Assembly: GCA_017467015.1 (NCBI GenBank)
Contig: JAFTTA010000204.1
Coordinates: 1 to 58,139, forward strand
DNA from: Bacteroidaceae bacterium
Lineage (GTDB): Bacteria > Bacteroidota > Bacteroidia > Bacteroidales > Bacteroidaceae
Reading direction: 5' to 3'
Length of the DNA: 58,139 bases
Part shown: positions 39,142-57,255 of the stretch, in pieces
Numbering within the stretch: the stretch's first letter is position 1
Layout of the letters: each line of letters begins with the position of its first letter
Notes under the pieces: model-generated
What the model was told of the DNA's origin: nothing
Seen by the model: only the letters and a program-made list of their open reading frames with translations
Database searches by the model: none
Made by a program: the position numbers and the translations under genes

Positions 39142-41523
39142 CTATAAATTAACGTCTACTACAGTGCCGCTCTCTCCACTGCTTTTGTGCTTGTCGGGTG
39201 GCAACGACAGCATTATTGTTTTTCTTTGCTCATTATCTGCTGTCTCCATGAAAGGACGTATGCTCACATCCAATATGTCTCCATCATTGACATCTACATC
39301 GGAGACGAACTTGAAGTTTAGCGTGTATCGTTTCGCTTTGTAGCGGTTTATAAACATCCATTCATTGCATAGTTCTTGCATCCCGTTACGCATGATATTA
39401 ACGACAATGCCCCATCCATCCTTTATGTGTGAAGCATACGATAAATCCACCACCACCGCAAAACCATACTCATATAACTTATGTGAAGCAGTGTCGCTTA
39501 TATATGCATTTAAATCGTCATCGGTAAAGTCGAAAGAGTTTGGTTTATATTCTTTACCAACATTCTGGTAGAATTCGACAATTTCCACTCGTGGCTCAGG
39601 CTTGCCATATTTGTGCTTGTAATCGGTGTAAAGGAAACGTGCTTTTGTCTCTGTGTTATACAAAAGAGGAATAGATATATATTCTACATCCACACTATCC
39701 TTGGGGATGTCTTGTTCGAATCTATATTCGACATTTGTTCTGGCAAACTCGTTTGCACCGATATAGAGGTCGGCGAAATGATTCTTACTATTAACCTCGT
39801 TCTTATACACTGCTAACAACGGTTGATACTTGTCCGGGTCAGGAGATACACCTAAATCCGATATTGAATATGCATATATAAGTTTTGTATAGTCCGGGTA
39901 GTCTATCTTTGTAGCGGGCATGGATGCTAATGACAATTTCGGCGCTACGGGATGTTTCTTCTCGTAAAAAGGTATTGAACCCAGTTCGGTACTTGCATCC
40001 CAGACATCCAATCCTAAAGGACTGAAGAATATCTCCAGATTTGCCGTTAAATCGCAGTAAGGCGATATTTCGCCTTCATATATTTTCCCATCCTCATCGT
40101 CTTCCTCTTCTTCATTCTCTTCCTTGTTTTCAAGGAATTTAAACTGTGCCTCACCCTTTACACCGGCAGAAAGGGTGGCGCTAATTGCAGAACCGATTGA
40201 TTCAAAAAATATCACAGATGCCTTTGCCTCTGCTTTAAATCCAATATCGAAACCTCCAGAAAGCAGAAACGTAAAGTCTGTATCCTTGTTAGGTTCTTTC
40301 TTGTTGTTTATGGGGTAGACAACATCATCTTTGATTTCGTAACCGGTAATGCTTTTTGTTGTGGTTGTCCAACATGCCGACACGGTTCCTTGTACCGATA
40401 CATTGAAAGCAATATTTATCTCGAATTGCCAACTGATGGGTACAGGTCCCGGCATTCTTATCTTTATCTTTGATGAAACAGCCTCTATTGCCTCTGATGT
40501 CATACCCTTAAGTTTAGCAGATGCCGATGTCAGTTTTTTTGCAAATTTCGAGTCTGCAAGTTTCTTCATTCGATTGCTGTTCATCGCTTTAGCAATCTTC
40601 TCATTGTTAAGGGCGGCAGTGTCCTTTTCCCAACCCACTTCCAATCCGGCATCTATGGCAAAAACCTGCTCATTAATCTCTTCGGTGGCATTATATTCAT
40701 AGTCTGTACGTGTGTCGAGGCGGCTTAATATCCTTATCCTGTTTTTGTTTTCTATTCGTACAGCGATAAATGGGGACATGTCGATGTTTTTGTCATTACA
40801 GAATTTTACCATTTTCTGTAGGTAGGCTTTCATCCTTCTCTTTATGAAATCTTTTTCTGCGATGCCACCCATGTGTACTCTGCTATCGAAACTAAAGCCA
40901 TATTCGCTCACAGAATCCTTTTCGCTGGTTACAATGGTATCGGTCTTTGCCCGTGTAAGAAAACTGCTATACTCCGATGTGCCGAAGAGCGACCAATCGT
41001 CAATGGCTTCACATTCACCTATGCTCTCCAGACTGTCGCGATAGCTTTGTGAAGGATAGAACTCACCATATTGTGGCGCAACGGATGCATCGATGTCGTA
41101 TGTCAACATCTCGTAAACGTCCTTTATATCTACTCTGGTGGTCACCACTTTGTAGAGTCCGTTGATGTTTGTCACCGACAACACCTTATTGTTTAGTCCT
41201 TCGGGGATTTTCGGGTGACAACCGCATGCAAGATATTCACCTCTTTCGGGCAGCATATCCGAAGGAATGTTGTCGAAGAAGTATATTATGGTGTCTGCCT
41301 CCACCGATGCTATGTAATCTTTCATGTTAGTGGTGACAGGTCGCACACCTTCGTTATATTTGTAGGTGGTGGTGATTACTCCGGGAATGACCTCGGTGTA
41401 TGGTTCGTCTATACCTCTCTGCTCCTCGGGTACATAATTCTCCATCTCATCCAGAACGAGTGTACAACCGCCGATTAAACAGGTGGAAAGGAATAGTATG
41501 ATGATGTAATATAATTTTCTCAT
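39142..41523 (-). CDS. 793-aa lipoprotein of unknown family; operon gene 6
   Basis: Lipobox LIGGC at aa 16-20. Beta-rich, with an acidic insert ENKEENEEEEDDEDGK. I recognise no motif. Confidence 0.8.
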   Translation of the reverse strand: MRKLYYIIILFLSTCLIGGCTLVLDEMENYVPEEQRGIDEPYTEVIPGVITTTYKYNEGVRPVTTNMKDYIASVEADTIIYFFDNIPSDMLPERGEYLACGCHPKIPEGLNNKVLSVTNINGLYKVVTTRVDIKDVYEMLTYDIDASVAPQYGEFYPSQSYRDSLESIGECEAIDDWSLFGTSEYSSFLTRAKTDTIVTSEKDSVSEYGFSFDSRVHMGGIAEKDFIKRRMKAYLQKMVKFCNDKNIDMSPFIAVRIENKNRIRILSRLDTRTDYEYNATEEINEQVFAIDAGLEVGWEKDTAALNNEKIAKAMNSNRMKKLADSKFAKKLTSASAKLKGMTSEAIEAVSSKIKIRMPGPVPISWQFEINIAFNVSVQGTVSACWTTTTKSITGYEIKDDVVYPINNKKEPNKDTDFTFLLSGGFDIGFKAEAKASVIFFESIGSAISATLSAGVKGEAQFKFLENKEENEEEEDDEDGKIYEGEISPYCDLTANLEIFFSPLGLDVWDASTELGSIPFYEKKHPVAPKLSLASMPATKIDYPDYTKLIYAYSISDLGVSPDPDKYQPLLAVYKNEVNSKNHFADLYIGANEFARTNVEYRFEQDIPKDSVDVEYISIPLLYNTETKARFLYTDYKHKYGKPEPRVEIVEFYQNVGKEYKPNSFDFTDDDLNAYISDTASHKLYEYGFAVVVDLSYASHIKDGWGIVVNIMRNGMQELCNEWMFINRYKAKRYTLNFKFVSDVDVNDGDILDVSIRPFMETADNEQRKTIMLSLPPDKHKSSGESGTVVDVNL

Positions 41524-41544: not shown

Positions 41545-42234
41545 TTATGGGATGGTCAACTCGAATAAATTGCTTAATGTGCCGTGGGTCTCTCCATCGA
41601 ACTCTATACGTTGTTTGAATTGTCTCAGTTTGAATTGTTCCCTGTCGTAATAGAGGAAACGAATGCGTTCGCGGCTATTGATGTCGCTTCCGTCGTAGTC
41701 GCTCTGAATTCTGAACTCCATGTATTTCACACCTTTCCATTCGCGCCAAACACCCAAACTGCGGAACTCATTTCCTCTGAATGCACCTATCAATATGTTT
41801 TCATCAGGAGTTTCTCCGTTTATTTTCACATCGGCATAGACAACTGTTTCATAGGGAGTGTCGCCGGGACTTGTCTCCCACTTCGGCATTACATACACAT
41901 AGCATGAGTCGGTAATACCTTTGAACATTGACGAGGCTATTATGTATGTTTCGCCTTGTGCCGACGCTACAATTGTTTCATCGTTTATATAGGCTATGCT
42001 GTCGTTGTTCGACCAAAAGAAGACCTCTTTAAATTTTATGGTGTCGGGGGTGAATATAGGCAACAGTTTGAATGTGTCGTCGAGCATTACATAAACCGAG
42101 TCGTGATTAAGACACATATCATACAGCTTCAAATCATCTTCATTTATATCAATGTCAATGATTCCGCACGACACGATGAGCTGCGACATTGCAACCGTGC
42201 ATGAGAATATTAATATATGTATGAGCCTCTTCAT
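41545..42234 (-). CDS. 229-aa lipoprotein: Big_2-like domain plus the shared 'GAFxGxExR' module; operon gene 5
   Basis: Lipobox IVSC. Big_2-like segment (VYVMLDDTFKLLPIFTPD..VFFWSNNDSIAYINDETIVASAQGETYIIASS). The C-terminal ~100 aa resemble modules in the 1097-aa and 2697-aa proteins. Confidence 0.8.
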   Translation of the reverse strand: MKRLIHILIFSCTVAMSQLIVSCGIIDIDINEDDLKLYDMCLNHDSVYVMLDDTFKLLPIFTPDTIKFKEVFFWSNNDSIAYINDETIVASAQGETYIIASSMFKGITDSCYVYVMPKWETSPGDTPYETVVYADVKINGETPDENILIGAFRGNEFRSLGVWREWKGVKYMEFRIQSDYDGSDINSRERIRFLYYDREQFKLRQFKQRIEFDGETHGTLSNLFELTIP

Positions 42235-42238
42235 GATA

Positions 42239-44557
42239 TCACTTTTTTGTTTTTTTATCCTCTTTTTCTATGGGTGCGGTCACTTTGACGATATTCGAGG
42301 GCTTGCTCTCGCGTCCATCGGCAAATTGTATGGTAATGTAATATTCTGCACTCTCTCCTGGTCGCAGAAGATAGTCGTTGAACATGCGTTCGTCGGGGGC
42401 TGCCGACATAAGGAAACCGAATGTGCGCTCTTTTGACCCTTTGCGGTATATACAGAAGTACCACTCTCCTTTGTATGGTAATTTGCCATCTGTCTCCCAT
42501 GCAATTTTTGTTTCGCGTTTACGCTTGTCGTATGCTCCTGTAAGTTTTATGGGCCAAGAGAAAACAATCTCTCCTTCGAACTTAACAGAGTATACCAGAC
42601 TGAGCCCGCTCGTTATTCCTGCATACGAATAGCTCTCGATGGCATATTCGTAGCGGTTGCTGCGGTTGTATTCGGGAACATCGAAAATATTCAGAATGTT
42701 TCTTTGCTTGCGCACGGAGTCGCCATCGAATGTGGCAATATTTTTCCATACGTTGCCTTTGCCTGCCATTCGACGCTTGAGTACGTGGTGCGAAATCTGT
42801 TCCTCGTTGCTGCAAATCCATCGCATGCTTATGCCCTTTGTCTGGTCCACCCACACCGAGTCGATGTGCGCCTTTCCGGGTATTATCATGCTGGGACGCA
42901 ACACCTGTAATGGTGCGCTATATTCACCTATGTTGGTTGAGTAGTCAATAGCTCTCACCTTGTAATAGATATATTTCTGGTTTACATCCACAGCCAACGT
43001 GTCTGTAAATTCTGTCCCACGCAACAATCCTATTGTACGCTGTTTGTACTGTTCTGTGGAGTCGTTGGCAAATACCACTTCATAGTAGTCGACATCTACG
43101 CTGGGCTCGTCCCACGACAAACGTACTATACCTCTTGCATTATCCACCACTTCGCAGCGCAGGTTGGCAGGCGCGTCAGGTGCTTTTACATCAGTGATGC
43201 GTACCACCTGAGGCAGTGAATAGCTCACATTGCCCTCTGCGTCGTATGCGGCAACAACCATCTGGCTTGTTGCTATGCCTGTAACCTCTATGGTGCATTT
43301 GTTTTGTCCTGCAGGAATAAGTTCTTTGGTCAACTCACGCCATTTTACGCTGTCCTTAGGTGCGTAATAGAGGATTTTGCAGCCTGTAAAGTCGCTCTCT
43401 ATGGTGTCTTTTTCGAAATAGAATGTTGCAAAAACATCGAGCGACAAGTCGTCGGGGTTGCGACGGTCGATGACTACTTTCACAAGGTTCGCAGGACGGG
43501 GAGCATCAATGTCGGGCACCTTTACGGTGTGTATGTGCGAAGGTTGTGTGAGGTCACCGAAGGGATCGTATGCCATTACCCTGTATTCATAGGTGCCCGG
43601 CGATGGCACAACGTCGCCAATGAAATTGTCGAGTGCTTCGTTTTCGACATTTTGCATCATCATGTATGGCTTTTTGTTTACACGTGTCCATTGTGTCTCG
43701 CCTTTTCTGCGTCGCTCTATTGCATAGGTGGAGTATTTCCTGTTGTTGCTCCACCACAGACGTACGCTGTTTATGCCGGTGAGTGTGTCGCCAATCTCGG
43801 GGTCGAATTTCTCGGGGACATATTTTTTATTCTCCACCGAAGGTATGTGCCCGGCGCGGAAACTGTAAACACCGGTTGTGTCTATCACTGTGGGTCTTAC
43901 GATATACTCATATTTCTCGCCGTTTTTCACTCTATAATCGACAAAGCGCATCGCCAGGTTGTCGGCAACGTCGCGTCGCCACTCAGAGGCAAGCACTGCC
44001 ATGGCAAAGCGCATCTGCTGGTCATCGTGCACATCCATCATTGCGCCCAATGATCCTTTCCCATATTTCGATTGTTCTTGTGTAAATCCTCCGGCACTGT
44101 AAAGAGCACCCATCGCCATCACGGCAACAGAGTCGGTGGTAAGATATTGTGAACGCCATTCGGTGAGGGTTGCCGGTTTCAAACCATATGCAAGCGTGTC
44201 GACCTTGAAAATATTGCCAACCTTGTAGCGCAAAACGTTTACGCCAACTCGGTTCAGGTAGCGCCATGCTGCATAGTCGTTGGGTGCCCAACGCAGCACA
44301 ATACTATCGCCGTAGGTGCGTACAAGCAAATTTATCTGCGAAGTTTCTGCTACGCGTTCTTTCTTACCGTTTTTAAGCTCTTTTATTTCGGTGCTGTCGC
44401 TTACTTCGCCTGCCAATATCTTCTTTCTGTTTATGGTGTCGGCTGCTATGTACTCTTTTCCTGTGACATTTCCTGTGAGTGGGAGTGTCTCGGATGCCGA
44501 TACGCCGAAAAACAGCATTGTGCCTGTTATATATCCTATAATGCGTTTCATCTTCAT
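42239..44557 (-). CDS. 772-aa secreted protein of about six FN3-like modules; operon gene 4
   Basis: Signal peptide. Recurrent FN3-like signatures (SIVLRWAP, SVRLWWSN..YEYRVMAYD, IVRLSWDEP..YYKVRAIDYS, ISMRWIC..YEYAIESYS, TKIAWET..YYITIQFADG). Inter-module PDIDAPRPA and DVKAPDAPA linkers. Lys-rich tail. Confidence 0.85.
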   Translation of the reverse strand: MKMKRIIGYITGTMLFFGVSASETLPLTGNVTGKEYIAADTINRKKILAGEVSDSTEIKELKNGKKERVAETSQINLLVRTYGDSIVLRWAPNDYAAWRYLNRVGVNVLRYKVGNIFKVDTLAYGLKPATLTEWRSQYLTTDSVAVMAMGALYSAGGFTQEQSKYGKGSLGAMMDVHDDQQMRFAMAVLASEWRRDVADNLAMRFVDYRVKNGEKYEYIVRPTVIDTTGVYSFRAGHIPSVENKKYVPEKFDPEIGDTLTGINSVRLWWSNNRKYSTYAIERRRKGETQWTRVNKKPYMMMQNVENEALDNFIGDVVPSPGTYEYRVMAYDPFGDLTQPSHIHTVKVPDIDAPRPANLVKVVIDRRNPDDLSLDVFATFYFEKDTIESDFTGCKILYYAPKDSVKWRELTKELIPAGQNKCTIEVTGIATSQMVVAAYDAEGNVSYSLPQVVRITDVKAPDAPANLRCEVVDNARGIVRLSWDEPSVDVDYYEVVFANDSTEQYKQRTIGLLRGTEFTDTLAVDVNQKYIYYKVRAIDYSTNIGEYSAPLQVLRPSMIIPGKAHIDSVWVDQTKGISMRWICSNEEQISHHVLKRRMAGKGNVWKNIATFDGDSVRKQRNILNIFDVPEYNRSNRYEYAIESYSYAGITSGLSLVYSVKFEGEIVFSWPIKLTGAYDKRKRETKIAWETDGKLPYKGEWYFCIYRKGSKERTFGFLMSAAPDERMFNDYLLRPGESAEYYITIQFADGRESKPSNIVKVTAPIEKEDKKTKK

Positions 44558-44572
44558 CTGTTGCTGACGTTT

Positions 44573-47500
44573 TTATTGTTCAATCAATGGCTGGTTCAAC
44601 AAACTTCTTCCCCAAGTGTTTCCATTGCGAAGCTCACCTCCATGGTTCACCACATACTCTTTTTTGTTGAAGTCGTATGCATTTACACGGTAGCATTGCA
44701 ATATGGCTTTTGTCATCGCTTCCCGTTTACCTTTGTAGTTATATCGACAAGCAGGAACAATCTTTGTCTGCTGACCATTATAATATGTTTCGTAATCAAG
44801 TTCTCCGCCAATGAAACTATACCATATATTCTCGCACAGTTCCTCTTGAGGACGGGCGTCGTCGTCGCTGTCGAATGCATCGAAACTTGCCCACATGTTT
44901 ATTGCCTTTGCATCGCCGCTGTTACGGAACTGCGAACCCCATAGCACAGCAAACTGATAATATGGAACTTGTGCCATGGCACCATAGCTCGAAGCGAAGG
45001 TCGCGTATGTTCCTGTGCGGTTCTCTGCCCATTGCTTCACTTTGTCCACATTTGAGCCATTGTATTGGTTGCCACCAAGTTCTTGTACCTCTTGAGCATA
45101 TGACGTGCAGAGAGCGTCCATGTTTCTTGCCACTGAGTATATGGCACCAAGGCTCTCGGTAATGTTCCTATAGTTGTCGCGGGAGTTGCTTGCAGGAATA
45201 TATTCGCATATTCTCTCAAGACCATCCTGCATGTAAGAGTAGCGTGGGTCGCTCGGGACAGGCAAAGGATATTGTGCATATCTTTGCCACTGTTTCTTGT
45301 CGTAAATGGAGATGTCGCGTATCTTCGAAACTCCGTTGACAATTCCATAGGCAAGTGCTTTGCTTTTAGCGCAGAATCCTTCATACACGCCTCCATTGTC
45401 GGTGTATATTAACGATTGCGAGGTCGTTGCCATACATCCCAGACGGCTGTTGGTGAGTTTGTAGCCACCTACAAAGGCATAGTTGCTGAGGTAACTCAGA
45501 TATATGTATGGGTCGTTCAGACGCAACATTTCACCCTTGTCGTTCTTGGGGCATGAGTATAGTGACAGGGTAATGTCGTCCCAATTGTCAGGGTCTTTGT
45601 AGTCAAATTCCACCTCTTCTATACACGCACCGATGAAGGGCTTTTCATACTCAAGGTTTATTCTTGAACCATCAGCAAGTTTATATCCTGTGCGCCAATT
45701 GCCGTCAACCGCTTTCAGTTCCATATGTGCAAGTGTGGTGGTGTCTACCACTATCACGTTCTTTGTTTCGTATGTGACTGTAGTCCTGCGCGACAATGTG
45801 GTGGTGCTCAATTCGGGTGTTATTGGCGACTTAATTCTTTTTACCGATGATTTCAGATAGACAAGCTTAAGCAAATATCTTTCGTTCTCCTCTATGTCGG
45901 TAAATTCCTCTTGAGGCTGCATGTTGCAAGTACTATCTGTTACAATCCATTTATTTTCGGATTTCTGTTTCAGTTCGTAGACAATATTTATATTATCTTT
46001 TGTGTTTATTAAACCGGATTTAGAGGAACCGGATTTTACCGTATATAGCTGCCACTCCAGCTTGCCTTCGTTGTAGCACTTGCCTTGCAGGTTCTTGCGA
46101 AGAGCAATGTTGGGGTTGTTTATATCTTTTATATACGCTTTCTGTATGCTGCTCTCTGTTTTCAGCTTGTTGAAGTACGATGGGTAGGCGATGGCAACAT
46201 ACTCCTCAAGGTTGGGGCAATCTTCAATTGCTTCCTCATCCTTTGTGCAGAAGTAGTACTCTTTTTCCTGGTACCAAGGAACACGCTTGTATTCGTGTGC
46301 TTCTTCGTCCCACTTCAACGGGTCGTCTTCTATACCATCGTATAGCTCCATTGCATATCCACCTACAATAAGCTTGTAGTAACAGCCGGGGTTCAGCTCT
46401 TTTATGTTCATTATATGCTCTGTACGCTCCGATCTCTTCAGCGCAAAAATACGTGTCGTTGGGTTCTCATCATCTTCGCTCTTGTATTCAATCAGTGAAA
46501 CAAATGGCATTGCATGGAACACAAATGTGCGGCTGGCTTGTGCTTTGAGATTTTCTTTGTCTCCTTCATAGTCGTGGGCGAGGATGTTTAGCTCTGTCTC
46601 GTCCAAAACTCTGAAATGTTCATCGACTGTAGCCTGTGTGTAGAATTTGGGCAACGATGCTATTTCGGAGTTAATGGCATTGTCTTTGTTCCAACCATTG
46701 CTCTTTATTGTATCGCCTATCGAGCAGTCGCCCAGCAGTTCGAAATTGTCGAGCGCATTTCCATAGAATACATCGCAGACATCGCCACATTCAAACTCGA
46801 ATTTGCGGTTTATAGATACCAATCCCGAGAGCAATCTCAGTTTTACGCGTGCAGCTCCTGTGAAGTATGTGGGGTTGGGACCACCCATGCGCAGTACACC
46901 ACCGATACCTGCGTCGAGTATGTCGAGACGTGTATCCCAGAATCCCAAGTCAATCTTCAATCCAAATTTTGCATATAGGTAGGCATACAGTTGTCCTTCG
47001 CCGTACCAACCGTTGTATCCGGGTGTGCGGCTTATATTCATACAGCTTGCGTTGGAGAGGTGTCGCAATGACATGTCGAAGCCGGCAATGGCTCCCATTT
47101 CGCCATAGAATAGTCCGAGGTCTACGTCAACATATCCCCACATCGATGCACCAAGCATCAAACCGCCGTTAACCTGTGCTTTGAAGTTGGCAAGTGCCTC
47201 TGTACGTGCTTTGTTGGCTTTTGACATGTCGTCGCTCTGCACACCCGACCCTTTTGTCGAGCCATCGAGGAATTGCTGTATCTTTTCGGGGATGGGTGGT
47301 AGCTCGCCGTCGCCGGGAAGTTCGTTTCCTAAGCAGAGATATGCATTTGCACCGATGTTCACCGATACTATCGGCGATTTAAAATCAATCCATGTAAATG
47401 TACAACGTTTGTCCTCAGCCGGTTCTCCTATGTACACATGCCATTTTGCCTTTGGCAGTTCCTTGCCTTCTGCTTTTGTGGTCACTTTAAAATCAAGTTG

Positions 47501-50500
47501 TATTGAGGCTCCCCCGACCTTCATCGAAGTCGATTTCTGTGCCTCTTCTTTCTTCTTCTCGGCCTCTTTCTTTGTGTCGCTGTCGGCTTCGCTATCCGAG
47601 GCATCGGCAAAGTCGCTAAGCCCTGCCGTCACTCCGGTTACAATGCTTTCGGCTTCGCTGTTTAGCTCTTTCAGTTTGCTTTCGAAATCACCCAATTGCT
47701 CTTCACCAATAATGTCGCTTACACCATCAATGCCTGTATCAACTGTGATGTTCAGCGAAAAGTATTCGTCGCTCTCATCGTGTTGATAGACGATACTTGC
47801 TTTGGAATCGACAAGGCCACCGATGACCTTGATGCCTCCCGTGAAAATAAATGTTGACAGACGGTCATTCTTATTATCATAGACGACAGTCATCTCAAAG
47901 CTACCGTTTAGTGTGTTTTCACCAGCCGATGTAGATAGTTTCATTCCGGCAATGACACCGATAATGCCCTTTTTCGGTGTTGCTTCGGTGTCGGATTTCT
48001 TTACGCAGTTGAAATAGAAACCTCCTTTTATCTCGTTCAGCACGACTGGGTCAAATCGTACACCCGCGGAACTGCCCAGCAAAATGTTGAAATATCCCCA
48101 AGTATAATCCTCAAGTTCGAAGTATCCTCCATTGGCATCCACGGTGAACAAATCGCCAGGCATTGTGAATTTAAGGCTTCCGCTGTAGCCTTTGCCGCGT
48201 GCGTCACCACCGCTGGCGACATTCAGTTCTCCTTTGAGTGTCATTCCGGCAAATGAGGAATTGAATGCGGCCTTGTTGAATTCCAAACCGTCGTATTCTA
48301 TTCCTATTTTCGAGAAATCTATCTCTCCGCTTATTCCTGTAATCTTCGACTTTATGGAAAGTCCGGCTGTTGCACTAAGGTCTATGCCTTCGATGAGTTT
48401 CACTGTTCCTTCGAGGTATAGCTTCATACCGGTGCCTTCAAAATCGAATTTGTAGTCGTCGAGTGAGAAGTTGAACGGGCCGAGTGATTGGCTTGCTACG
48501 CTCTTTTTCTCCTCTGCCCGTGCCGGGGCATAAGGCGATGGACCGTGTGTTGCGTAGAGTGTCTCTTCGCTGTTTTGTGTAAATGCTTGATCGTCGCTTT
48601 CGGGGCGCGATGCAAGTGACCAGTCACCTGAGTTGAAGTAGAAATTGTCGCCTACCTTGAACTGTTTGTTTTTGCACAGTTCCATGAGTATCTCGGCATT
48701 GTCCTTGCCGTTTTGCAGCTCTTTCTCATACTTCGACTCCCATAGGTCGCAGTTGGCAATGCGCATCTTTGCAAAATGTATGCCGGGGATGCTGAAACTG
48801 AGTCCTAGGTCGTTTACTTTATCTTGCAAATAGTCTGTGCCGCCAATGGTGAGTGTTCCTCCCATCAGCAACTCTACCTTAGTTTTCAGTTTTTCGCCTT
48901 CGGGCTCAGCCTCCAGAAGCAGATAGGTCAGGTTCTTGTCTATGTCGGCTTCGGCAAGAATGAAGTCGAAGTTTATATTGTCAATCTGTTGTGTCTTGAA
49001 AATGTAGGCATAGTCGCCTGCCTTGCTTTTTGTGCTGTCGCCGAGGTTTATTATGCGACATTCGTATCCTACGGTGCCTTCTACAAGGGGCACGTCGAAT
49101 TTTCCGCTGAAATTACAGTAGTTGAAGTTGTTCTGTATAAATTCGAGGTTCACCTTGTCGAGTGAGAACGACCAACCGCCTGCCTTGCCGGTTGTCGCCG
49201 ACAGGATGTTTTTTGCACCCACCATCAATGTGGCTCCCGACTTGTCGATGAACATCTCTTCGGCGCTGATAGAGCAACGTTTGTCGCTGCTTTCGCCGAA
49301 CTCGAGCGCTTCGGGCATCTTCACGCCCACTTTCTTTATGTACAATCCCTGCCAGGAGTCTATGTCACCCACCGTCAGCGACTTCTCTTTGTCGTAGGCG
49401 TCGGGGAACTTGCCCATGTGTGTCGAGTTGCGATAGCTCGAGTGGTCGTAGACGATATCTTCGGCTGTGAAGGTCCATCCCGGCATATCCTCTGCCTGGA
49501 AGGGGTCTATGGTCACTTGGTCCACCATCCAATCGTCCCAGCTGCCTATGCTTGTCTTTATTTTTAGTACAGGCATTTCGTCGGTGACCTTGCCGGCTAC
49601 CTCTTTCTTCAGTCCGGGGATTTTCATCTCCACGTCGAGTCCCAGTAACTCCAACGAATAGTCTTTCCATGCTATGTAGCAGCCATCGTTGGGCTTCAGT
49701 ACATTCTCGGGCGCGTTGAACGTCATTTCGTATGACGATTTCGGGTCGAGTATAGTGAAGTCGGAGAGCAATGCAAGTGTTCCTCCCTCGGGAATAATCT
49801 TGTCGGGCGAAACGCAAAGACGCGGTGCACCGAATATCAGAATGTCATTTTTCAGGTAGTTTGAGCCGGGGAGGGTAAACTCGCCGATGAGGTCCATGGT
49901 GGCATATTCTGCCGAGAATTTCATTGATGAAATCTGAATATCCACAGGGGTTGAGTTTATCTCTTTGGGCAGTGCCACTGGGAAATACAGTTCGTCTACG
50001 TCGCCTTTACCTATAAGGTCGCACACAACGCCGCCTTTCTTTACATAAGAGTAGTATTTGCTTATGTCTATCTTTTTGGCAAGGTCCTTTACTGCTCCTG
50101 TTGCTGACGATTGCAGATACTCGGCATAGGGGATGCCTGTGTCGGCAATGAGGTTGTCGATGCCCCAGTCGCTGAATAGTGAGTCGACCACTTGTGAGTC
50201 GCCTATGCTCGACTCGGCATATGTGGTGGCTGTTCCTTCATAAACAGCGTAGTCGCTGTTGATTTTCAGGTCGCTGAACTTAACGCACACCATGACGGTG
50301 GTTCCCATCGGGTTCCACTCGATGCGTCCTTTGCCTTTCCAGGTATTCTCGCTTGCACTGCTAATGTCGTCGAGCGTGAGCTGATATTCGCCTATGGATA
50401 TTGTTTTCCCTTTCAATTCGTCGGCTTTGGCTTTGATGGGCTCTTTGTTGCTGATTTCTACCATGTTCGAGCACTCGAAGTATTTTCTGCTCAGCTGCTC

Positions 50501-51982
50501 GGCTATGGCAAAATCGACAATGTTCTGGTCGCCGGTGAACGCTACCGACTTGCCGTTCACGCACTCGGGCACAATGCGCAATACCATGTAGTCGCCATCT
50601 TTTGTTATGTTCTTAAGGCTGTCCCATGGTATGCTGTCGCTTAGTTGTGTGCTGTGTTCATCGAAATATTTTGTGTATATGGGCTTGCCTTGCAGTGTTG
50701 CCTCTTTGTCGGCAGTGCCGCCGTTGTTGAAGAGCTCCAGTTTGTAGGCAAATTTAAGCGTGTCGGCACGCTGACCCTCGCCGCCAATGAAAAAGACATT
50801 GTCCCACGACATTTTCAGAGGTTTGCTCATCAGATGTTTGCGAGCTGCTATTGAAAGGAATGTGGGTGATGTTATCTTGGGGTTGCGGAATGTATAGAGC
50901 GAGTCGGCGCAGATGCTGTCCGTGACATCTACGTTACCAAGCAGTTTGAAATATCCTTTGCCGCTGTCGTCATCATCGCTGCTACTGCCGCCGCCGGTCT
51001 TGTTGTTGTCGTCGTCATCGTCATTATCATCGTCATCATTGCCTTTGCTTGTCTTTATGCGGAACTGACGGTAGTTGCTCTTGCCGTTGTTTTCGATTTG
51101 CACGTAGCTCATGGCAGCATTCTTGCTGCTCTTGGCAGTAACACAGGCAACGTATGTCTTGTCGGCGTAGAATTTATTTGTTATGATGTTTGTGGGTATA
51201 ACACATGAAGGGACAACCAATGATGTTGCCTGAAAAGCTATGGGGTTGTTGTCCATTGCGTAGTCGGGCTGTTGTCCGGGTGTCAACTCCACAACCTTGA
51301 AGTCGTATGTGTAGGAACTGAAGTCCGATGCACAAGGGATGACCGGTGCGCTCCATGTGAATTGGGCAAAAAGAGGGTCGAGGTCGGCTATTTCGCTATT
51401 CTCAGTGCCAATGAGCATGGGGGTGAGTATTTGCGGCGCTTGTGCATTGTAGCATACTCTAAAAGTGGCAATACCACCGGCCGGGTTACTCATTGCCAAT
51501 GGGTTGGTGGCGGGTGTCTCGTTCCATTTGTAGGCGTTGATGTGTATCTTGTAGTATCCCTCGGGCAGCAAACCGAATGAGCCGCTCTCGTAGTCGGAGA
51601 AAAGGTTTACCGGGCAGCTTATTTCGTTAGCCGGTATATGGTTGAACAGTTTCTTCATCTCCACCGTTGTCAACTGATATGTAGAGTTAGGTTGTATGGT
51701 GAAGGGTGTCTTTGGTTGGCGCTTGGGTGGGGTAGTAATAGAAAGGTCCGATGCCGGCGCGGTCTGCTCCATGTGCAGAGCAAGATATACCTGTTGTGCT
51801 TCGGCACCGGTGTTTGTAAGTGATATGTTGAAATATTTTCCCGGGTCGTTTATGTAGAGAAGCACCTGTGGTGGCAACACCTGCTGCACGGGAGTGACAT
51901 TGACCACAATCTCTTGTGCTACGATGCTGATGCTGCATAGTAGTGCTATAAGAAGTGTCGCAATGAATTTATATATTCTCAT
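44573..51982 (-). CDS. 2469-aa secreted giant protein of unknown family, no T9SS CTD; operon gene 3
   Basis: ATG at 51982. Signal peptide MRIYKFIATLLIALLCSISIVAQ. N-terminal Ig-like modules, a poly-Asp/Asn linker, then a long beta-rich body with a Lys/Glu/Asp-rich linker. The C-terminus (..GNTWGRSLLNQPLIEQ) does not resemble a CTD. Confidence 0.88.
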   Translation of the reverse strand: MRIYKFIATLLIALLCSISIVAQEIVVNVTPVQQVLPPQVLLYINDPGKYFNISLTNTGAEAQQVYLALHMEQTAPASDLSITTPPKRQPKTPFTIQPNSTYQLTTVEMKKLFNHIPANEISCPVNLFSDYESGSFGLLPEGYYKIHINAYKWNETPATNPLAMSNPAGGIATFRVCYNAQAPQILTPMLIGTENSEIADLDPLFAQFTWSAPVIPCASDFSSYTYDFKVVELTPGQQPDYAMDNNPIAFQATSLVVPSCVIPTNIITNKFYADKTYVACVTAKSSKNAAMSYVQIENNGKSNYRQFRIKTSKGNDDDDNDDDDDNNKTGGGSSSDDDDSGKGYFKLLGNVDVTDSICADSLYTFRNPKITSPTFLSIAARKHLMSKPLKMSWDNVFFIGGEGQRADTLKFAYKLELFNNGGTADKEATLQGKPIYTKYFDEHSTQLSDSIPWDSLKNITKDGDYMVLRIVPECVNGKSVAFTGDQNIVDFAIAEQLSRKYFECSNMVEISNKEPIKAKADELKGKTISIGEYQLTLDDISSASENTWKGKGRIEWNPMGTTVMVCVKFSDLKINSDYAVYEGTATTYAESSIGDSQVVDSLFSDWGIDNLIADTGIPYAEYLQSSATGAVKDLAKKIDISKYYSYVKKGGVVCDLIGKGDVDELYFPVALPKEINSTPVDIQISSMKFSAEYATMDLIGEFTLPGSNYLKNDILIFGAPRLCVSPDKIIPEGGTLALLSDFTILDPKSSYEMTFNAPENVLKPNDGCYIAWKDYSLELLGLDVEMKIPGLKKEVAGKVTDEMPVLKIKTSIGSWDDWMVDQVTIDPFQAEDMPGWTFTAEDIVYDHSSYRNSTHMGKFPDAYDKEKSLTVGDIDSWQGLYIKKVGVKMPEALEFGESSDKRCSISAEEMFIDKSGATLMVGAKNILSATTGKAGGWSFSLDKVNLEFIQNNFNYCNFSGKFDVPLVEGTVGYECRIINLGDSTKSKAGDYAYIFKTQQIDNINFDFILAEADIDKNLTYLLLEAEPEGEKLKTKVELLMGGTLTIGGTDYLQDKVNDLGLSFSIPGIHFAKMRIANCDLWESKYEKELQNGKDNAEILMELCKNKQFKVGDNFYFNSGDWSLASRPESDDQAFTQNSEETLYATHGPSPYAPARAEEKKSVASQSLGPFNFSLDDYKFDFEGTGMKLYLEGTVKLIEGIDLSATAGLSIKSKITGISGEIDFSKIGIEYDGLEFNKAAFNSSFAGMTLKGELNVASGGDARGKGYSGSLKFTMPGDLFTVDANGGYFELEDYTWGYFNILLGSSAGVRFDPVVLNEIKGGFYFNCVKKSDTEATPKKGIIGVIAGMKLSTSAGENTLNGSFEMTVVYDNKNDRLSTFIFTGGIKVIGGLVDSKASIVYQHDESDEYFSLNITVDTGIDGVSDIIGEEQLGDFESKLKELNSEAESIVTGVTAGLSDFADASDSEADSDTKKEAEKKKEEAQKSTSMKVGGASIQLDFKVTTKAEGKELPKAKWHVYIGEPAEDKRCTFTWIDFKSPIVSVNIGANAYLCLGNELPGDGELPPIPEKIQQFLDGSTKGSGVQSDDMSKANKARTEALANFKAQVNGGLMLGASMWGYVDVDLGLFYGEMGAIAGFDMSLRHLSNASCMNISRTPGYNGWYGEGQLYAYLYAKFGLKIDLGFWDTRLDILDAGIGGVLRMGGPNPTYFTGAARVKLRLLSGLVSINRKFEFECGDVCDVFYGNALDNFELLGDCSIGDTIKSNGWNKDNAINSEIASLPKFYTQATVDEHFRVLDETELNILAHDYEGDKENLKAQASRTFVFHAMPFVSLIEYKSEDDENPTTRIFALKRSERTEHIMNIKELNPGCYYKLIVGGYAMELYDGIEDDPLKWDEEAHEYKRVPWYQEKEYYFCTKDEEAIEDCPNLEEYVAIAYPSYFNKLKTESSIQKAYIKDINNPNIALRKNLQGKCYNEGKLEWQLYTVKSGSSKSGLINTKDNINIVYELKQKSENKWIVTDSTCNMQPQEEFTDIEENERYLLKLVYLKSSVKRIKSPITPELSTTTLSRRTTVTYETKNVIVVDTTTLAHMELKAVDGNWRTGYKLADGSRINLEYEKPFIGACIEEVEFDYKDPDNWDDITLSLYSCPKNDKGEMLRLNDPYIYLSYLSNYAFVGGYKLTNSRLGCMATTSQSLIYTDNGGVYEGFCAKSKALAYGIVNGVSKIRDISIYDKKQWQRYAQYPLPVPSDPRYSYMQDGLERICEYIPASNSRDNYRNITESLGAIYSVARNMDALCTSYAQEVQELGGNQYNGSNVDKVKQWAENRTGTYATFASSYGAMAQVPYYQFAVLWGSQFRNSGDAKAINMWASFDAFDSDDDARPQEELCENIWYSFIGGELDYETYYNGQQTKIVPACRYNYKGKREAMTKAILQCYRVNAYDFNKKEYVVNHGGELRNGNTWGRSLLNQPLIEQ
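50962..51043 (-). repeat. GAY/AAY trinucleotide-rich tract encoding NDDDDNDDDDDNNKTGGGSSSDDDDS
   Basis: Runs of gtc/atc/gtt triplets on the plus strand, inside the 2469-aa CDS. Confidence 0.9.
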
Positions 51983-52033: not shown

Positions 52034-53749
52034 TTACAACGCGGCTCTTTCCTTGCTTTTCTTTTTTATGCTGAACAGACTGAATGTGTAGAGATAATTC
52101 AGACTGATGGTGGTGTCGGTACAGTCGAGTCCGCTGCGTGTTTGCGAAATGTTTACATCGCCATATTTACTGAACCCTGCCATTGCCGAGAATACATGTA
52201 CTTTTTTATATGTGTAGCTTGCCGATAGGTCGGTTGCGAGCGACAGGCTTTTCGATGTGTATCTCATTTCGTTGTAGCATAGCGACAGACTAGCCGACAG
52301 GTTCAGACTGTTGTCTTTCAGGAACGAGCGTGATGCCGACAGTGAGGCTACATCGCTTATGTATTCCGACCTGTATCCTGCGGATTGTTGATGGCTGTAA
52401 GTGATTGTGAAGTCTGTGACCCAGGGCTTCACGTCTATGTTGTATGAGCAACCGATGGCTTTGGTCTTTACATCGCCTATGCCGGTTGCGTATTTGTTCA
52501 GGTCTTCGTTCTTTGAGTAGTTCAGCGACAGGCTTGCATTGTGTCCCAGATTGTCGGTTTCGTACATGAATGAGGGTGTGAGGCTTATTCCCGACATCAG
52601 ACGCTTTATCTTTATGCTGTCGTTTATGTGCATTGTTCCGTCGCGCTGTGTCTGCAGGTAGCCGTTATAGGATGCGCTGAGGTTGAAATAATCGTTTATG
52701 CGGGTCGATGCACTGAGGGCATATATGTAGCCGCAGGTGGTGTACATCTGTTCTCCCGAGAGGTTGTCCTCCTGCCCCGAGAATATTGCCGAAAGGGCTA
52801 TCCTTTTAAACAGGAAGGTGTTTACCGACACAGCAAGGCTGTGATAGTTGTTTGATATGTGGTAGGTACCCAATGATGTGTAGTCGGGTTGTATCATTCT
52901 GTAGCTGAGGCTTGCATTGAAGCCGGGCAGCATGAAGTTTGCGTTCACGTCGCCGGCAAAGCGCACGAGTGAACTGTATCGTGTGTCGAATACTTTGTCA
53001 AATGATGTGGAGGTGGCTATTTTTTCGGCTTCGCTGTCTTTGTTCAGAATCGATGTGGCAGCGTTTGCCGTCAGCGAGAACCATGACAGCGGTGTCACGC
53101 AGCCTTTTACTCCGAGAACAAGGTTTTCTTGCGGTCGCACTATCTCGCGCCACTCTTGGTCGAGTGAATGTCTGCTGTCGTATGCACGTAACAGATATAC
53201 ATCTATATAATTCTTGCCACTTCCATAACCGCTTTTTATTCCCCAACCCATTCTCTTGTATTGTGGGGCGCGGGCAAACGGGTCTGTGGGGTCGTCGTTA
53301 ATGGCGTTGCGCAGTCGTCCGTAGAATGCTCCGGCGCGCCATTTGTCGTCGTTATACTCTATGCCTACTCCGTTGAACGACATGTTCATCACATAGTTGC
53401 TCATGGATATGTTTGAAAGACCTATGTGACCTGTCCAGTTCTTATACGATGGGGTGAGGTTGAAAGATATTTTCGGATAGTTGAAGTTGAGGTTGTCGTT
53501 GCTGTAATAAAATGAGAATGGCATGTTTATGCCGAATGTACTGATGTTGAGCGTTGCATATACTGTGTTGCTCATGGGCGAAGCATATCCGTTACCTACC
53601 GATGAGTTGCGGTAGGTATTCATAGTTCCTATTGTACCCGATATTATCAATGGGTCGCTGTTGGCTATGTCAGATATGTTCTGTCCTGCCAGTGGTATAT
53701 GTAGCAGGAACAACATAGCCGTTGTTAGGCAAAGGATATGTTTGCGCAT
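52034..53749 (-). CDS. Predicted outer-membrane beta-barrel protein (~571 aa), family unknown; operon gene 2
   Basis: The ATG at 53749 gives MRKHILCLTTAMLFLLHIPLAGQ, a signal peptide. The ORF-track TTG at 53809 adds 20 non-signal residues. The whole length shows alternating hydrophobic/polar ~10-aa strands rich in Y/S/N/G (..ASLSYRMIQ.., ..LSASYNGYLQ.., ..ASLSLNYSK.., ..TISLNYLYTF..). Confidence 0.75.
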   Translation of the reverse strand: MRKHILCLTTAMLFLLHIPLAGQNISDIANSDPLIISGTIGTMNTYRNSSVGNGYASPMSNTVYATLNISTFGINMPFSFYYSNDNLNFNYPKISFNLTPSYKNWTGHIGLSNISMSNYVMNMSFNGVGIEYNDDKWRAGAFYGRLRNAINDDPTDPFARAPQYKRMGWGIKSGYGSGKNYIDVYLLRAYDSRHSLDQEWREIVRPQENLVLGVKGCVTPLSWFSLTANAATSILNKDSEAEKIATSTSFDKVFDTRYSSLVRFAGDVNANFMLPGFNASLSYRMIQPDYTSLGTYHISNNYHSLAVSVNTFLFKRIALSAIFSGQEDNLSGEQMYTTCGYIYALSASTRINDYFNLSASYNGYLQTQRDGTMHINDSIKIKRLMSGISLTPSFMYETDNLGHNASLSLNYSKNEDLNKYATGIGDVKTKAIGCSYNIDVKPWVTDFTITYSHQQSAGYRSEYISDVASLSASRSFLKDNSLNLSASLSLCYNEMRYTSKSLSLATDLSASYTYKKVHVFSAMAGFSKYGDVNISQTRSGLDCTDTTISLNYLYTFSLFSIKKKSKERAAL

Positions 53750-53778
53750 ATTTTTTCTATGGTTTATAGAAACATAGT

Positions 53779-53810
53779 ATTGCAGTACCGGACTACTCCG
53801 GTACTGCAAT
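53779..53810 (-). promoter_or_regulatory. Perfect 13-bp stem-loop between operon genes 1 and 2
   Basis: attgcagtaccgg-actact-ccggtactgcaat starts 6 nt after the gene-1 stop codon (TAA at 53817-53819 on the minus strand). No U tract follows it on the minus strand. Confidence 0.8.
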
Positions 53811-53816
53811 GTTTGG

Positions 53817-56800
53817 TTACTTTTTCACTTTCTTGGTTACAATGGTGTCGCCCTGACGAATTTTGAGTATGTAGATACCCTCACTCATCTCAGTAACACG
53901 ACGGCCTTTCATGTCGTATATTGCTACTATGGCTGCTTCATCAATCGTGTTGATGTCGTTGATGTCGGTTGTGCCCAATACGGCGCCCATATCTATAGGT
54001 TCTTTGTATGAGCCGACCATTTCGGCAAATGCCACCTCTGCCTCTACCGCGTAGTACTCTTTGGTCCATTTGTTGTAGAGTCGGAATGTTACCTGCTCAC
54101 CGGCAGTTCCTGAGGCTGTTACATATACACGACCATTGATTATTTTACCTTCGCCACGACAATCGTCGCCTACGAATGCACCGATAGAATAGTCGTCGGC
54201 ATCTTCAATGTCCATTTTGCCTATTATTGCCATGGTGTTTGCGAAGCGGCTTGCATCGTACATCCACACTGTATCTCTGTTGCCACGGATGGCGGCAAGG
54301 GTCGACTTTGTGCCTTGAGGAAGTGTGAATCTTCCGGGCATCTCCAACTCAATTGTCTCTTCGCTGTTGGAGTATATCAGATATCCCTCATAGGGGTTAA
54401 GCTCGGTGAGTGAACCTTCCCATGTGCCTTCCGATGTAACCATTGCAAAACCTCTCGATTGCGACAGGATGATGTCGCCCTCGCTCAGTTTAGATGCATC
54501 GAAGATATCGGCAACGGCATATTTGTATTCATAGGGGTATGAAACCCAGTTCCAGCCTTTTTCAAGGATTTTGCTTTCAATGTCGCCATTCTCGCTGAAT
54601 GACATCTCGCCGGCGAGGTCGAGTGTGAAGCTTGTTTTGGCATTCAGCTTGTATGCTTCACGATGGTCCATGTTCTCGAGTGTGCCGAAGAAGCCCCATA
54701 GCGGGTCGTTGTAAACAAGATCCAACTTGCTACGCACCTCTTGTATCTCGTTGGAATAGTTATGGAGCCCGTAGAAGTATGAAGCAACGAATGATATCCA
54801 GTTCCAGCCGCTTGCAACCTCCATTCTTTCTGCAATGGTAGTATATGTTGTGGCTTGGAGCTGCTCTGAATCGCCCTGCTCCGATGTGTCGTAGTTGGCT
54901 TCTATGTTCACTGTCGACCACAGACAATTTGCTTTGATGCTGTATGTTTCCATGCCGTCAGCAGTGGTAACGTGCTCAAATGAAATAACGTCCCATCCGT
55001 CGGGGAATATTTCGCTCTCCGCAACGCCGATGTTCAGCATCTCGGGGTCGAAGTCGGCATCAGTGGGGTAGTAGGCAATGTCGAAGTTAACGGGTGTTCC
55101 GTCGTTGTACAATTGCTCACCCAGCATGTCGGGCATTGCAATGCCTGTAACCTTCTTCTTCGCAGTGACAACGCATGTTGCAGTTACTTCGGGGTTCGAC
55201 TCGCTTGTGAATGTAATTGTCGCTGTTCCCTTGCCGACAACGCTAAATACATGATTGTCGTTCACCGTTACAACCTCTTCGTTGTCCGATGCAATGATGA
55301 TATTCCCGTTGGTTGCATCCTCGGGCACAATGGTTGCTGTTATTGTGAAATCAGTGGTGTTGCCCTCGCTGAACCATACGGTCTTTTCTGTCTCTGAGAG
55401 TTCAATGGCTGTTACGTCTGTTGTGATGTTCAGTGACACATAGTCGTTGAACTGCTCGTCGGCGGTTACACATAGTCTCACCTGGTCAACAGGCTTCTCA
55501 ACTATCTTAAAGATGTATGTAAGCACGTTGTTCTCGATAGTTGATGAGATAACTTCCACCATGGGAGATTGTGCAATGTCCATGCCATCGGAATTCAATA
55601 TCGACATGCTGAATGTGTTATAGTCTGCGTCCTCGGGGTTCAATCTTGCAATGGCTGTAACCTCGCGTCCCAATGAGATGTTTACCACAGGTTCTGTCAC
55701 ACTGACACTTGGTATTTCAACACCGTTTACAGATATAAACTCAACGCTCTCGATTTTTCGTTTTACTGTTATTGTGAATTCTACTTTCTTAGAATTGTCG
55801 TATAACGATTCGTATGTGATGGTTGCTGTTCCACATTTCAGAGGAACTGCTATATGTTCTATGCCGGCTTCGCCTACGATTTCATTAATCTCGATAATTT
55901 CGGGGTCGCTGCTTGTAACGGTATATTGTTCATGCGACTCTATGTCTATAACGGGGTTGCCATTTGCATCTTTTATCCAATCGAATGTGGGTGTCGGCAA
56001 GGTGAGTCGATTGTCCATGTACAGCTCGGCGCTTGCCTCGGGCAATGTGATACCATTTAGAGCTGAGACTACAGTTATTGTGAATGTGGTTGACACATTC
56101 TCATTGTCGACAGCTGTGGCAGTGATGGTTGTCTGACCGATGCGGGCGGGCATGAGCTCTCCGTCTACAACAGATACTACAAATTGGTTCTCTGTGGTGA
56201 ATGTTACCCCCGGAGTGGTAGGTTGGCTCTCTCCGTTGTTATATACTATATTGGGTGTTATCTTAAAAGTTCCTAAGTAGGTGCTTATATCTTCAATGGC
56301 TATGCTCTCAACGTTGATGTATTTGGGCTCAACTTTAGCATACATCTCCTTGAAAAAGTCATTATTTGCACCAATATGGTAATAACCAATAAGTTCGAAC
56401 AGATATTCGCCACTCTCGTCAGAGTAGGTGGAAGTGCCGTTAGCCTGCACATAATCCACTCCATCGATGTTTACCTTTTCGACAATGGTTCCCTTCTGAC
56501 CTTCGATGATGAATTCACCATCCTCTTCGGGGGTTGTGGCCTCTTGGCCATCAATATCGAGAAGTCTGACACTGAAGTCGCTCATGGGTTTTTTGTCGCC
56601 CACTTCCATCACAAATCTGTCCGTTTCCACCTCGTCAATGTACAATTTTACCTCGTTGATAGGCTTAAAGGCAAGAGTGAAATAGTTTGATGGTTCTACA
56701 AGTGTCTTGTCACCGCTCCACTTTATCTCTGTTTGGAAAGTGCCATCACTTGTTGTGTACATTGGAGTTAAGGGGTAGGTCAGTCCACGATTATTGTCGT

Positions 56801-57184: not shown

Positions 57185-57255
57185 CTGGGATTAACTTATT
57201 TACCTTTTAACATCCTTAATTCCGCAACACTTTGATTTAACTTTATTTATAAGTT

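Follow-up and report, generated by a model that had tools for sequence, protein, structure and literature searches.

The window analysed here (58,139 nt; positions 1 to 58,139 of contig JAFTTA010000204.1, assembly GCA_017467015.1, from a Bacteroidaceae bacterium) encodes on its minus strand a protein of 2,469 amino acids (aa), the giant (open reading frame (ORF) 44573-51982 (-), ATG start). Its gene is flanked by the gene of a candidate outer-membrane beta-barrel (g2) and by that of a protein with fibronectin type III (FN3) repeats (g4). By gene order, barrel, giant and FN3 protein are an obligate gene triad, syntenic across bacterial orders. The three core families have no characterised relative in the searches described below and are kept together across orders, which makes them new as families and as a module on the sequence evidence. 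We tentatively propose that the giant is the giant subunit of a new, Sec-dependent outer-membrane complex that is independent of the T9SS (type IX secretion system) and built on its own barrel. That the triad constitutes a new Bacteroidota machine, either a route for inserting or displaying a giant protein at the cell surface via its own, very large barrel or a conduit that brings hydrophobic cargo there, is a more doubtful proposition. The giant is a real gene, with more than 200 full-length homologues at 35-54% identity.

A dedicated, adjacent beta-barrel had been proposed in a first-pass annotation of the window. Its gene (52034..53752, minus strand; 572 aa, signal peptide, C-terminal YLYTF motif) lies directly upstream of the giant in 74 of 83 related loci, i.e. 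in 74 of the 74 with enough upstream flank, and in all distant relatives examined; in the other nine loci no more than about 1.1 kb separates the start of the giant from the end of the contig. The partner set could be refined beyond the barrel alone. The third member of the triad, a 772-aa FN3-repeat protein with a signal peptide (g4; 42239..44557, minus strand; identified by FN3 matches), is encoded downstream in 73 loci, and loci without it appear to end soon after the giant. Further genes of the neighbourhood are g1 (71 loci), g5 and g6 (68 each) and g7 (29), with order and strand constant, and g2 is the best-conserved gene of all (48-69% identity). The general order is barrel (~570 aa), giant, FN3 protein (~700-800 aa). 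Intergenic gaps in the window operon measure 2-64 nt.

The order barrel-giant-FN3 is kept in the distant loci L084, L086 and L087 and in the Persicobacter locus L089, and L085 keeps barrel and giant up to its contig end. The barrels of these distant relatives have 566-637 aa and the FN3 proteins 689-752 aa. Their giants are P0233 (2,158 aa), P0259, P0262 (3,278 aa), P0246 (3,095 aa) and the Persicobacter protein (1,560 aa); the contig of P0259 ends at the giant and is therefore outside the FN3 gene count. In L086, L087 and L089 neighbouring starts and stops abut or overlap. For L084 and L089, hhalign returned homology probabilities of 100 and 99.9 for the barrel and likewise of 100 and 99.9 for the FN3 protein. 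In an alignment of the two proteins, only aa ~632-1760 of the window giant have a counterpart in the Persicobacter giant, which places the conserved core in the central region. By these alignments the core is aa ~630-1760, and the N-terminal arm of immunoglobulin (Ig)-like domains and the C-terminal third are accessory and variable.

A clear match to a known family was a finding that, according to the first-pass annotation, would speak against its view; none emerged here. Pfam and NCBIfam (E<=0.1) and PHROGs gave zero families for the giant, and PDB sequence searches with the giant alone, a 26-sequence full-length profile and a sheet-module profile gave no true match, only spurious coiled-coil matches that stem from the helical tails of the longer homologues. 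Likewise, the barrel g2 and 18 of its homologues matched nothing in Pfam or the PDB, Omp85, POTRA and plug models included. The sole family signal was a sub-threshold one for DUF6603 (PF20248) in homologues: three full-length homologues scored 25.1-26.6 bits against a cut-off of 27, over profile positions 2-146 of 502, at about aa 1130-1310 in the numbering of these homologues, the counterpart of the first strands of the sheet described below. DUF6603 also matched four of ten module sequences (best E 4.7e-5) and gave no match in the window giant itself. The matches cover less than a third of the profile, all below the cut-off. The family has no known function, and the literature library that was searched gave no mention of DUF6603 or PF20248. 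Literature searches on DUF1573 and on giant proteins of Bacteroidota, whose coverage is incomplete, did not find the module.

For structural comparison the giant was modelled with AlphaFold2 in two halves, both from alignments of 32 sequences: model 1 covers aa 23-1165 (predicted local distance difference test score (pLDDT) 74.7, predicted template modelling score (pTM) 0.47) and model 2 aa 1166-2365 (pLDDT 74.8, pTM 0.54). In a Foldseek search of the PDB, model 1 retrieved only generic strings of Ig, FN3 or macroglobulin (MG) domains, with template modelling scores (TM) <=0.15. The top matches of model 2 were outer-membrane barrels (LptD/LptDE, OccD, BcsC, PelB, FimD, TonB-dependent receptors), and ApoB100 was also on the list. 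These matches have TM 0.1-0.29 and a root-mean-square deviation (rmsd) of 15-35 A; the best of them, 7omm_A, reached E 4.8e-4 and probability 0.96 with TM 0.15/0.23 and rmsd 24.6 A. Against BFVD, a viral library, model 2 gave nothing meaningful, and a phage origin of the giant was rejected. Two further candidates were discarded: an Rhs/YD-repeat or Tc-toxin cocoon (no RHS match in Pfam, one chance YxYD, Teneurin with a Foldseek probability <=0.13) and a bacterial alpha-2-macroglobulin (no CxEQ, no A2M match in Pfam, weak MG-like Foldseek matches with TM about 0.13).

Export by Sec is indicated by the N-terminus of the giant, MRIYKFIATLLIALLCSISIVAQ|E, which has a basic n-region and reads as the layout of a type I signal peptide. 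As claimed in the first-pass annotation, the signal peptide is of the classical kind: the segment is the sole strongly hydrophobic 19-mer of the whole protein (Kyte-Doolittle score (KD) 2.28), and 26 homologues show no or almost no variation at the Ala22-Gln23 junction. From the sequence and the conserved Ala22/Gln23 a cleavage VAQ|E is predicted, with the signal peptide at aa 1-22 (51917..51982, minus strand). Neither a lipobox nor a transmembrane helix was found in the giant.

The signal peptide is followed by two beta-sandwich (Ig-like) domains, aa 23-180 and 181-312 (51047..51916, minus strand), predicted by model 1 with pLDDT about 75-90. The annotation had described two Ig-like modules, each introduced by Q(V/I)L(P/T)P. 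The motifs are present, QVLPP (aa 34-38) opening the first segment and QILTP (aa 184-188) the second, and both modules are modelled as beta-sandwiches; that they are sequence repeats of one another was not supported by BLASTP (E 1.6, not significant). Both domains are absent from the 1,560-aa Persicobacter homologue. The linker rich in Asp, Asn, Gly and Ser that had been noted behind these modules was found at aa 313-345 (50948..51046, minus strand; pLDDT about 30); it is acidic and a hot spot of insertions among the homologues. According to the secondary structure of model 1, more beta-sandwich domains and a helical bundle (about aa 594-657) make up aa 346-660 (50003..50947, minus strand).

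Export by the T9SS in Bacteroidota requires a C-terminal domain (CTD), and the annotation had noted that the giant has no such sorting domain. Indeed, the models for type A (TIGR04183/PF18962), type B (CHU_C PF13585) and type C (NF033708) CTDs left the whole protein unmatched at E<=0.1 and its last 110 aa unmatched at E<=10; a cryptic type B CTD, which the annotation had named as a finding that would speak against its view, was looked for in the same 110 aa and not found. As a positive control, the last 110 aa of the neighbouring g1 product (53817-57110) yielded a type A CTD with E 1.5e-5, above the curated cut-off, and type A CTDs were also detected in the last 110 aa of ORF 15706-19446 (E 1.9e-4) and ORF 23644-31737 (E 0.013). 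Four other large proteins of the window had been credited with a T9SS CTD. For three of them this was borne out by hidden Markov model (HMM) matches, but the last 110 aa of ORF 19473-23639 (+) matched no T9SS CTD HMM. This ORF encodes a 1,388-aa InlB-repeat/PKD/LRR protein whose C-terminus looks CTD-like by eye (VTIYDLTGG…IIKIYNNK).

Towards the C-terminus the giant has a mixed alpha/beta region, aa 1736-2365 (44888..46777, minus strand), which is modelled with pLDDT mostly 80-95 and gave no Foldseek match better than the weak barrel-type ones. Conservation drops to 18-33% past aa ~1950, and the C-terminus, with the last 104 aa and the stop codon at 44573..44887 (minus strand), is the least conserved part of the protein. 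Many long homologues extend 580-1,418 aa past the C-terminus of the giant, with helical sequence. Such extensions are carried by the 3,100- to 3,900-aa family members P0074, P0090, P0106, P0107, P0113 and P0118; they are repetitive and predicted helical or coiled-coil, with PDB matches only to chains of the vimentin, dynein and dynactin type, and their ends show nothing CTD-like by eye, these tails having had no CTD model scan. The missing CTD, the least-conserved C-terminus and the helical tails of homologues support the conclusion that the giant is not a recognisable T9SS substrate.

It is very improbable that the giant is nevertheless a cryptic T9SS substrate or adhesin, either with a signal too divergent to be seen or by riding out together with the CTD-bearing g1 product. 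T9SS cargo is encoded in the window and flanks the triad in several classes: CTD proteins flank L084 and L086, and in Persicobacter L089 a CHU_C (type B) cargo, a 707-aa uncharacterised protein and a PorP/SprF-OmpA fusion are encoded just upstream. Type B CTD cargo pairs with PorP/SprF. No homology was found between the Persicobacter T9SS cargo and g1. However, the search that detected the CTDs of three neighbours failed on the giant even at E<=10, and the unconserved C-terminus gives way to long helical extensions or, in distant homologues, to unrelated sequence.

The annotation had described the body of the giant as dominated by short beta-strand-like segments, and the three peptides it quoted were located, with starts at aa 936, 1270 and 1606. 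The first part of the Bacteroidota-wide core, aa 661-1124 (48611..50002, minus strand), is beta-rich according to the strands of model 1, up to aa ~1122, and in this part Bacteroidales homologues are 50-63% identical. Amphipathicity is less marked in its strands than in the sheet module that follows behind a disordered, poorly conserved linker at aa 1125-1167 (48482..48610, minus strand; identity about 0.22, pLDDT <50).

Both AlphaFold2 and coevolution lend support to an amphipathic sheet of 24 strands in up-and-down order at aa 1168-1735, into which the strand-like segments of this part of the body would resolve. Strands 1-14 occupy aa 1168-1417 (47732..48481, minus strand; identified from model 2, strand faces and coevolution); in model 2, 14 antiparallel strands of 10-18 residues are joined by turns of 2-5 residues between aa 1170 and 1417. 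A charged helical or disordered loop follows at aa 1418-1487 (47522..47731, minus strand; pLDDT 24-42). Strands 15-24, ten strands at aa 1488-1733 in model 2, lie with an inserted helical segment in aa 1488-1735 (46778..47521, minus strand), a Gly-rich part that shows 53-65% identity and is the best conserved of the superfamily. The last strand is KFEFEC, with alternating aromatics. The loop contains the second charged linker reported previously, SDSEADSDTKKEAEKKKEEAQKS, whose coordinates agree (aa 1462-1484, nt 47531-47599). It does sit inside the beta-rich body, as had been stated; nevertheless it belongs to a loop within one sheet and marks no domain boundary.

For the sheet a mean-field direct-coupling analysis was performed on 206 sequences (effective number 163, gap-filtered). 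Adjacent antiparallel pairings were found for strands 1-2 to 9-10, 11-12 to 14-15, and 16-17, along with i/i+2 couplings between strands. Covariation of strands 14 and 15 reaches over the charged loop; the loop is thus inserted into a single continuous sheet, and the HMM of aa 1165-1765 matches relatives in one unbroken stretch across the loop. A signal for closure between strands 1 and 24 was not found in these 206 sequences. Strands 11-14 facing 17-20, as in a folded-over sheet, were hinted at by a signal near chance level. Non-adjacent strand pairs with 3-4 coevolving contacts are at chance level, and coevolution for this reason leaves closure or sheet-on-sheet packing undecided.

On nearly every strand of the sheet one face consists of L, I, V, F, A or G and is almost uncharged, and the other is rich in K, D, E, N, S, T and Y. 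Family-wide, the hydrophobic face is the more conserved one (1.72 vs 2.14 bits for the polar face); it contains 3-5% Tyr+Trp and 22% Gly+Ala. The same analysis of the barrel g2 gave two equally conserved faces and a polar face rich in Ser and Asn. As indirect evidence, a conserved hydrophobic face poor in Trp and Tyr speaks more for a buried core or groove than for a transmembrane surface exposed to lipid, and we take this to suggest that the sheet has such a core or groove and is not a lipid-exposed barrel. A homology between g2 and the sheet of the giant was rejected (hhalign probability 0.6).

These properties make it improbable that the giant is itself integral, with its 24 strands closed into a transmembrane barrel that would serve as an LptD- or SprA-like translocon with periplasmic or surface domains at both ends. 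Long amphipathic antiparallel strands, a list of top Foldseek matches made up of outer-membrane barrels, the aromatic pattern of the last strand and a size near that of SprA/Sov are all in line with it. Nevertheless, the low TM and high rmsd of those matches argue against it, as does the lack of a SprA model match; the hydrophobic face has few Tyr and Trp, much Gly and Ala and, unlike that of g2, a higher conservation than the polar face. Moreover, turns in model 2 are short on both sides of the sheet, longer loops occur on both sides instead of one, and no signal connects strands 1 and 24. SprA/Sov resembles the giant in several respects, being a beta-rich protein of the same phylum with about 2,400-2,500 aa, a Sec signal and no CTD in a T9SS-containing genome. 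SprA is a 36-strand transmembrane barrel. The giant differs in the faces of its sheet, which do not look lipid-exposed, and in occurring as several divergent copies per genome; PDB profile searches returned no SprA entry, and SprA structures were outside the top 50 Foldseek matches of either half-model.

The same hydrophobic face would fit an Lpt/TamB/AsmA-like conduit, in which a groove in the sheet carries hydrophobic cargo (a lipid, a glycolipid or the acyl chains of the operon lipoproteins) to or through the barrel and the giant stays periplasmic. We consider this unlikely, yet it has several points in its favour: the stronger conservation, composition and scarcity of Tyr and Trp of the hydrophobic face, a K/D/E-rich polar face as expected of a solvent-exposed surface, LptD/LptDE as best Foldseek matches with ApoB100 among the others, the near-chance hint of a folded-over sheet, two lipoproteins in the operon, and a pairing with a barrel that recalls TamA/TamL-TamB and LptD. 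Against it, no DUF490, AsmA or LptD/OstA model matched and the Foldseek TM values are only 0.1-0.25. The signal peptide looks cleavable in near and distant homologues, so that an inner-membrane anchor would be lacking. A patchy range, divergent multiple copies, an adjacent regulator and a hypervariable C-terminus are unlike a housekeeping lipid pathway, and one report (PMC12045153) indicates that Bacteroidota already own a TamB with TamL.

By analogy the module may work most like LptDE, TamA/TamL-TamB and TpsB-TpsA, but it fails their sequence membership tests. LptD-LptE likewise combines a very large barrel with a beta-sheet element with a hydrophobic face and a small lipoprotein, and its structures are top Foldseek matches of model 2, with TM only 0.10-0.23. 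The giant, however, lacks the LptD/OstA signature and has about 1,800 extra residues with Ig-like and alpha/beta domains, sheet and barrel are separate gene products here, and LptD-LptE is universal and essential whereas the triad is patchy and multi-copy. TamA/TamL-TamB and other AsmA-like systems share a giant beta-rich protein with a barrel, amphipathic strands, short turns and a conserved hydrophobic face. They differ from the giant, which has no DUF490/AsmA match, a putatively cleavable signal peptide and no inner-membrane anchor, and from g2, which has no Omp85/POTRA match.

In TpsB-TpsA and CdiB-CdiA a barrel of ~570 aa is likewise encoded directly upstream of a giant Sec-dependent protein, whose C-terminus is strain-variable. 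A secretion of this two-partner kind, with the barrel as a dedicated translocon that releases or displays the whole giant as an adhesin or exoprotein, is an unlikely explanation of the triad. It would account for the strict adjacency and tight spacing of barrel and giant, for a barrel that is apparently large and without a detected plug, and for the surface-protein traits of the giant (Sec signal, Ig- and FN3-like domains, acidic linkers, variable tails). However, the giant has no two-partner secretion (TPS) domain and no beta-helix, and the barrel has neither POTRA nor a ShlB/Omp85-type signature. Conservation in the giant is strongest in a sheet whose hydrophobic face is large, a feature that does not resemble secreted adhesins of the beta-helix type, and such a scheme does not explain what the third partner, the equally conserved FN3 protein, does.

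The T9SS-independent outer-membrane complex that we tentatively favour could be put together as follows. Once exported by Sec, the giant would be kept at the outer membrane by its cognate barrel, with the hydrophobic sheet as a docking or groove element. The g2 barrel, estimated at 24-30 strands (about 30 amphipathic 9-residue windows in its 572 aa), would serve as a socket or conduit. It would let a portion of the giant, most probably its variable C-terminal region together with the helical extensions of long homologues, reach the surface without the T9SS. The Bacteroidales loci add to the triad a Big_2 protein anchored by the T9SS, two lipoproteins and a protein of the DUF1573 family, which would complete the complex there. 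The likely role would be that of a surface structure, expressed conditionally, for adhesion or interaction. A housekeeping function is disfavoured by the several divergent copies per genome and by the adjacent response-regulator/AraC gene.

Several considerations weigh against this proposal. Synteny alone is no proof of contact between giant and barrel or of export; export of the giant by the barrel, an inference from synteny, is as compatible with the data as a periplasmic or envelope-associated location, and a Sec-exported protein without a further signal remains periplasmic by default. The C-terminus could be variable owing to relaxed constraint instead of exposure. That T9SS cargo genes adjoin the triad in different classes counts in favour of the proposal, but in the distant loci this could be chance, such genes being numerous in these genomes. 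Confidence in the AlphaFold2 models is moderate (pLDDT about 75, pTM 0.47-0.54, from 32 sequences), and they leave the shape of the sheet (open, folded over or closed) undecided, and the strand count of g2 is a crude estimate.

The family is large. A word-indexed search gave 203 homologues of the giant at E<=0.001; the 120 listed are mostly full-length, at 35-54% identity, and unnamed or titled 'hypothetical protein'. An exhaustive search with the HMM of aa 1165-1765 matched 1,546 cluster representatives (clusters at 50% identity) at E<1e-3; with E<1e-10 as the limit the number is 1,253. Most matches span the whole 602-position profile in one stretch; several of the most distant relatives among those listed match only its second half, about aa 1500-1760. 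All homologues with readable taxonomy are Bacteroidota. Among species-representative genomes 118 relatives were found, and the 80 listed are essentially all Bacteroidales, a few records being titled only 'bacterium'.

Carriers among the listed loci include Prevotella, Bacteroidaceae, Muribaculaceae, 'Porphyromonadaceae' and Phocaeicola metagenome-assembled genomes (MAGs), and Prevotella, Bacteroidaceae and Muribaculaceae of gut and rumen commonly carry the module. Some genomes hold two or three divergent copies. In one Prevotella MAG the whole operon occurs as three divergent copies, of which two (L026 and L077) are in tandem on JAZQOH010000044.1 and the third is at L054, and several other MAGs carry two operon copies. 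Multiple copies, variable ends and T9SS-anchored neighbours suggest a role in interaction with a host, phage or particle. Hallella seregens ATCC 51272 and Prevotella sp. 885 are cultured carriers of the giant and make the module experimentally accessible.

To our knowledge, the known routes to the surface of Bacteroidota are the T9SS and surface lipoprotein export, the transporter of the latter still being unidentified. A widespread, conserved module that joins a very large barrel of no known type to a giant without either the T9SS or the lipoprotein signal is indicative of a further pathway or structure in the envelope. Since the core of the giant, the barrel and most of the C-terminal region are without precedent among solved structures, a structural study would add folds.

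Two carriers from other orders were added by tblastn against plasmid records, Persicobacter sp. JZB09 (Cytophagales) and, with a fragmented copy, Bergeyella porcorum (Flavobacteriales). The Persicobacter locus L089 corresponds to CP012852.1 1297520-1322170, a region that is unannotated in the record; its triad is followed by a 2,119-aa FN3 and PT-HINT polymorphic-toxin-like protein. In Bergeyella porcorum (L088, plasmid pQD2021, 11165-20000 of the locus) the giant copy is split into several short annotated ORFs and, judged from this, may be pseudogenised or mis-assembled. It adjoins two FN3-domain proteins and a deaminase-domain protein on the 70-kb plasmid, and its location on a plasmid hints at mobility.

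The remaining genes of the operon all lie on the minus strand. The first gene of the Bacteroidales operon, g1 (53817..57110), encodes a 1,097-aa Big_2 surface protein (Big_2 E 1.2e-5) with a T9SS type A CTD in its last 110 aa (24.9 bits vs a cut-off of 23), and 8 of 20 g1 homologues match a T9SS CTD model. Downstream of g4, g5 (41545..42234) encodes a lipoprotein of 229 aa (lipobox IVSC) that weakly matches the Ig domain phrog_215 (E 0.0014). A domain common to the g5 and g1 products was suspected by eye and proved not significant (E 0.08). The 793-aa lipoprotein encoded by g6 (39142..41523; lipobox IGGC) is poorly conserved, with 16-30% identity among orthologues. The last operon gene, g7 (38720..39139), encodes a 139-aa DUF1573 Ig-like protein (PF07610, E 1.1e-26) and occurs in L001 and L003 as well.

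A perfect 14-bp GC-rich stem-loop (53779..53810, minus strand; -28.2 kcal/mol, z = -7) is located between g1 and g2. The mechanically called ORF of g2 (52034-53809 (-)) begins at TTG 53809 inside this hairpin; the orthologue alignment and the signal peptide MRKHILCL… point to ATG 53752 as the real start. Perfect hairpins of 10-12 bp and unrelated sequence occupy the same intergenic position in three of six related loci (L008, L014, L064), and L026 has an imperfect AT-rich repeat there. The hairpin could set the ratio of g1 to g2, either as an internal attenuator or by stabilising the mRNA.

Upstream of the operon, the window shares 100% identity with its sister contigs L090 and L091 only until nt 57213, 103 nt upstream of g1. 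Beyond this point the window holds an ORF (57345-58139 (+)), open at the window end, with a weak match to a DDE transposase (E 0.0045, below the cut-off). L090 continues with a divergent regulator gene (Response_reg+HTH_AraC). From the sequence junction, an insertion sequence may have separated the operon copy of the window from its regulator, or the assembly may switch there. A response-regulator/AraC gene is adjacent in other loci, too, and the divergent gene seen in the sister contigs probably controls the operon.

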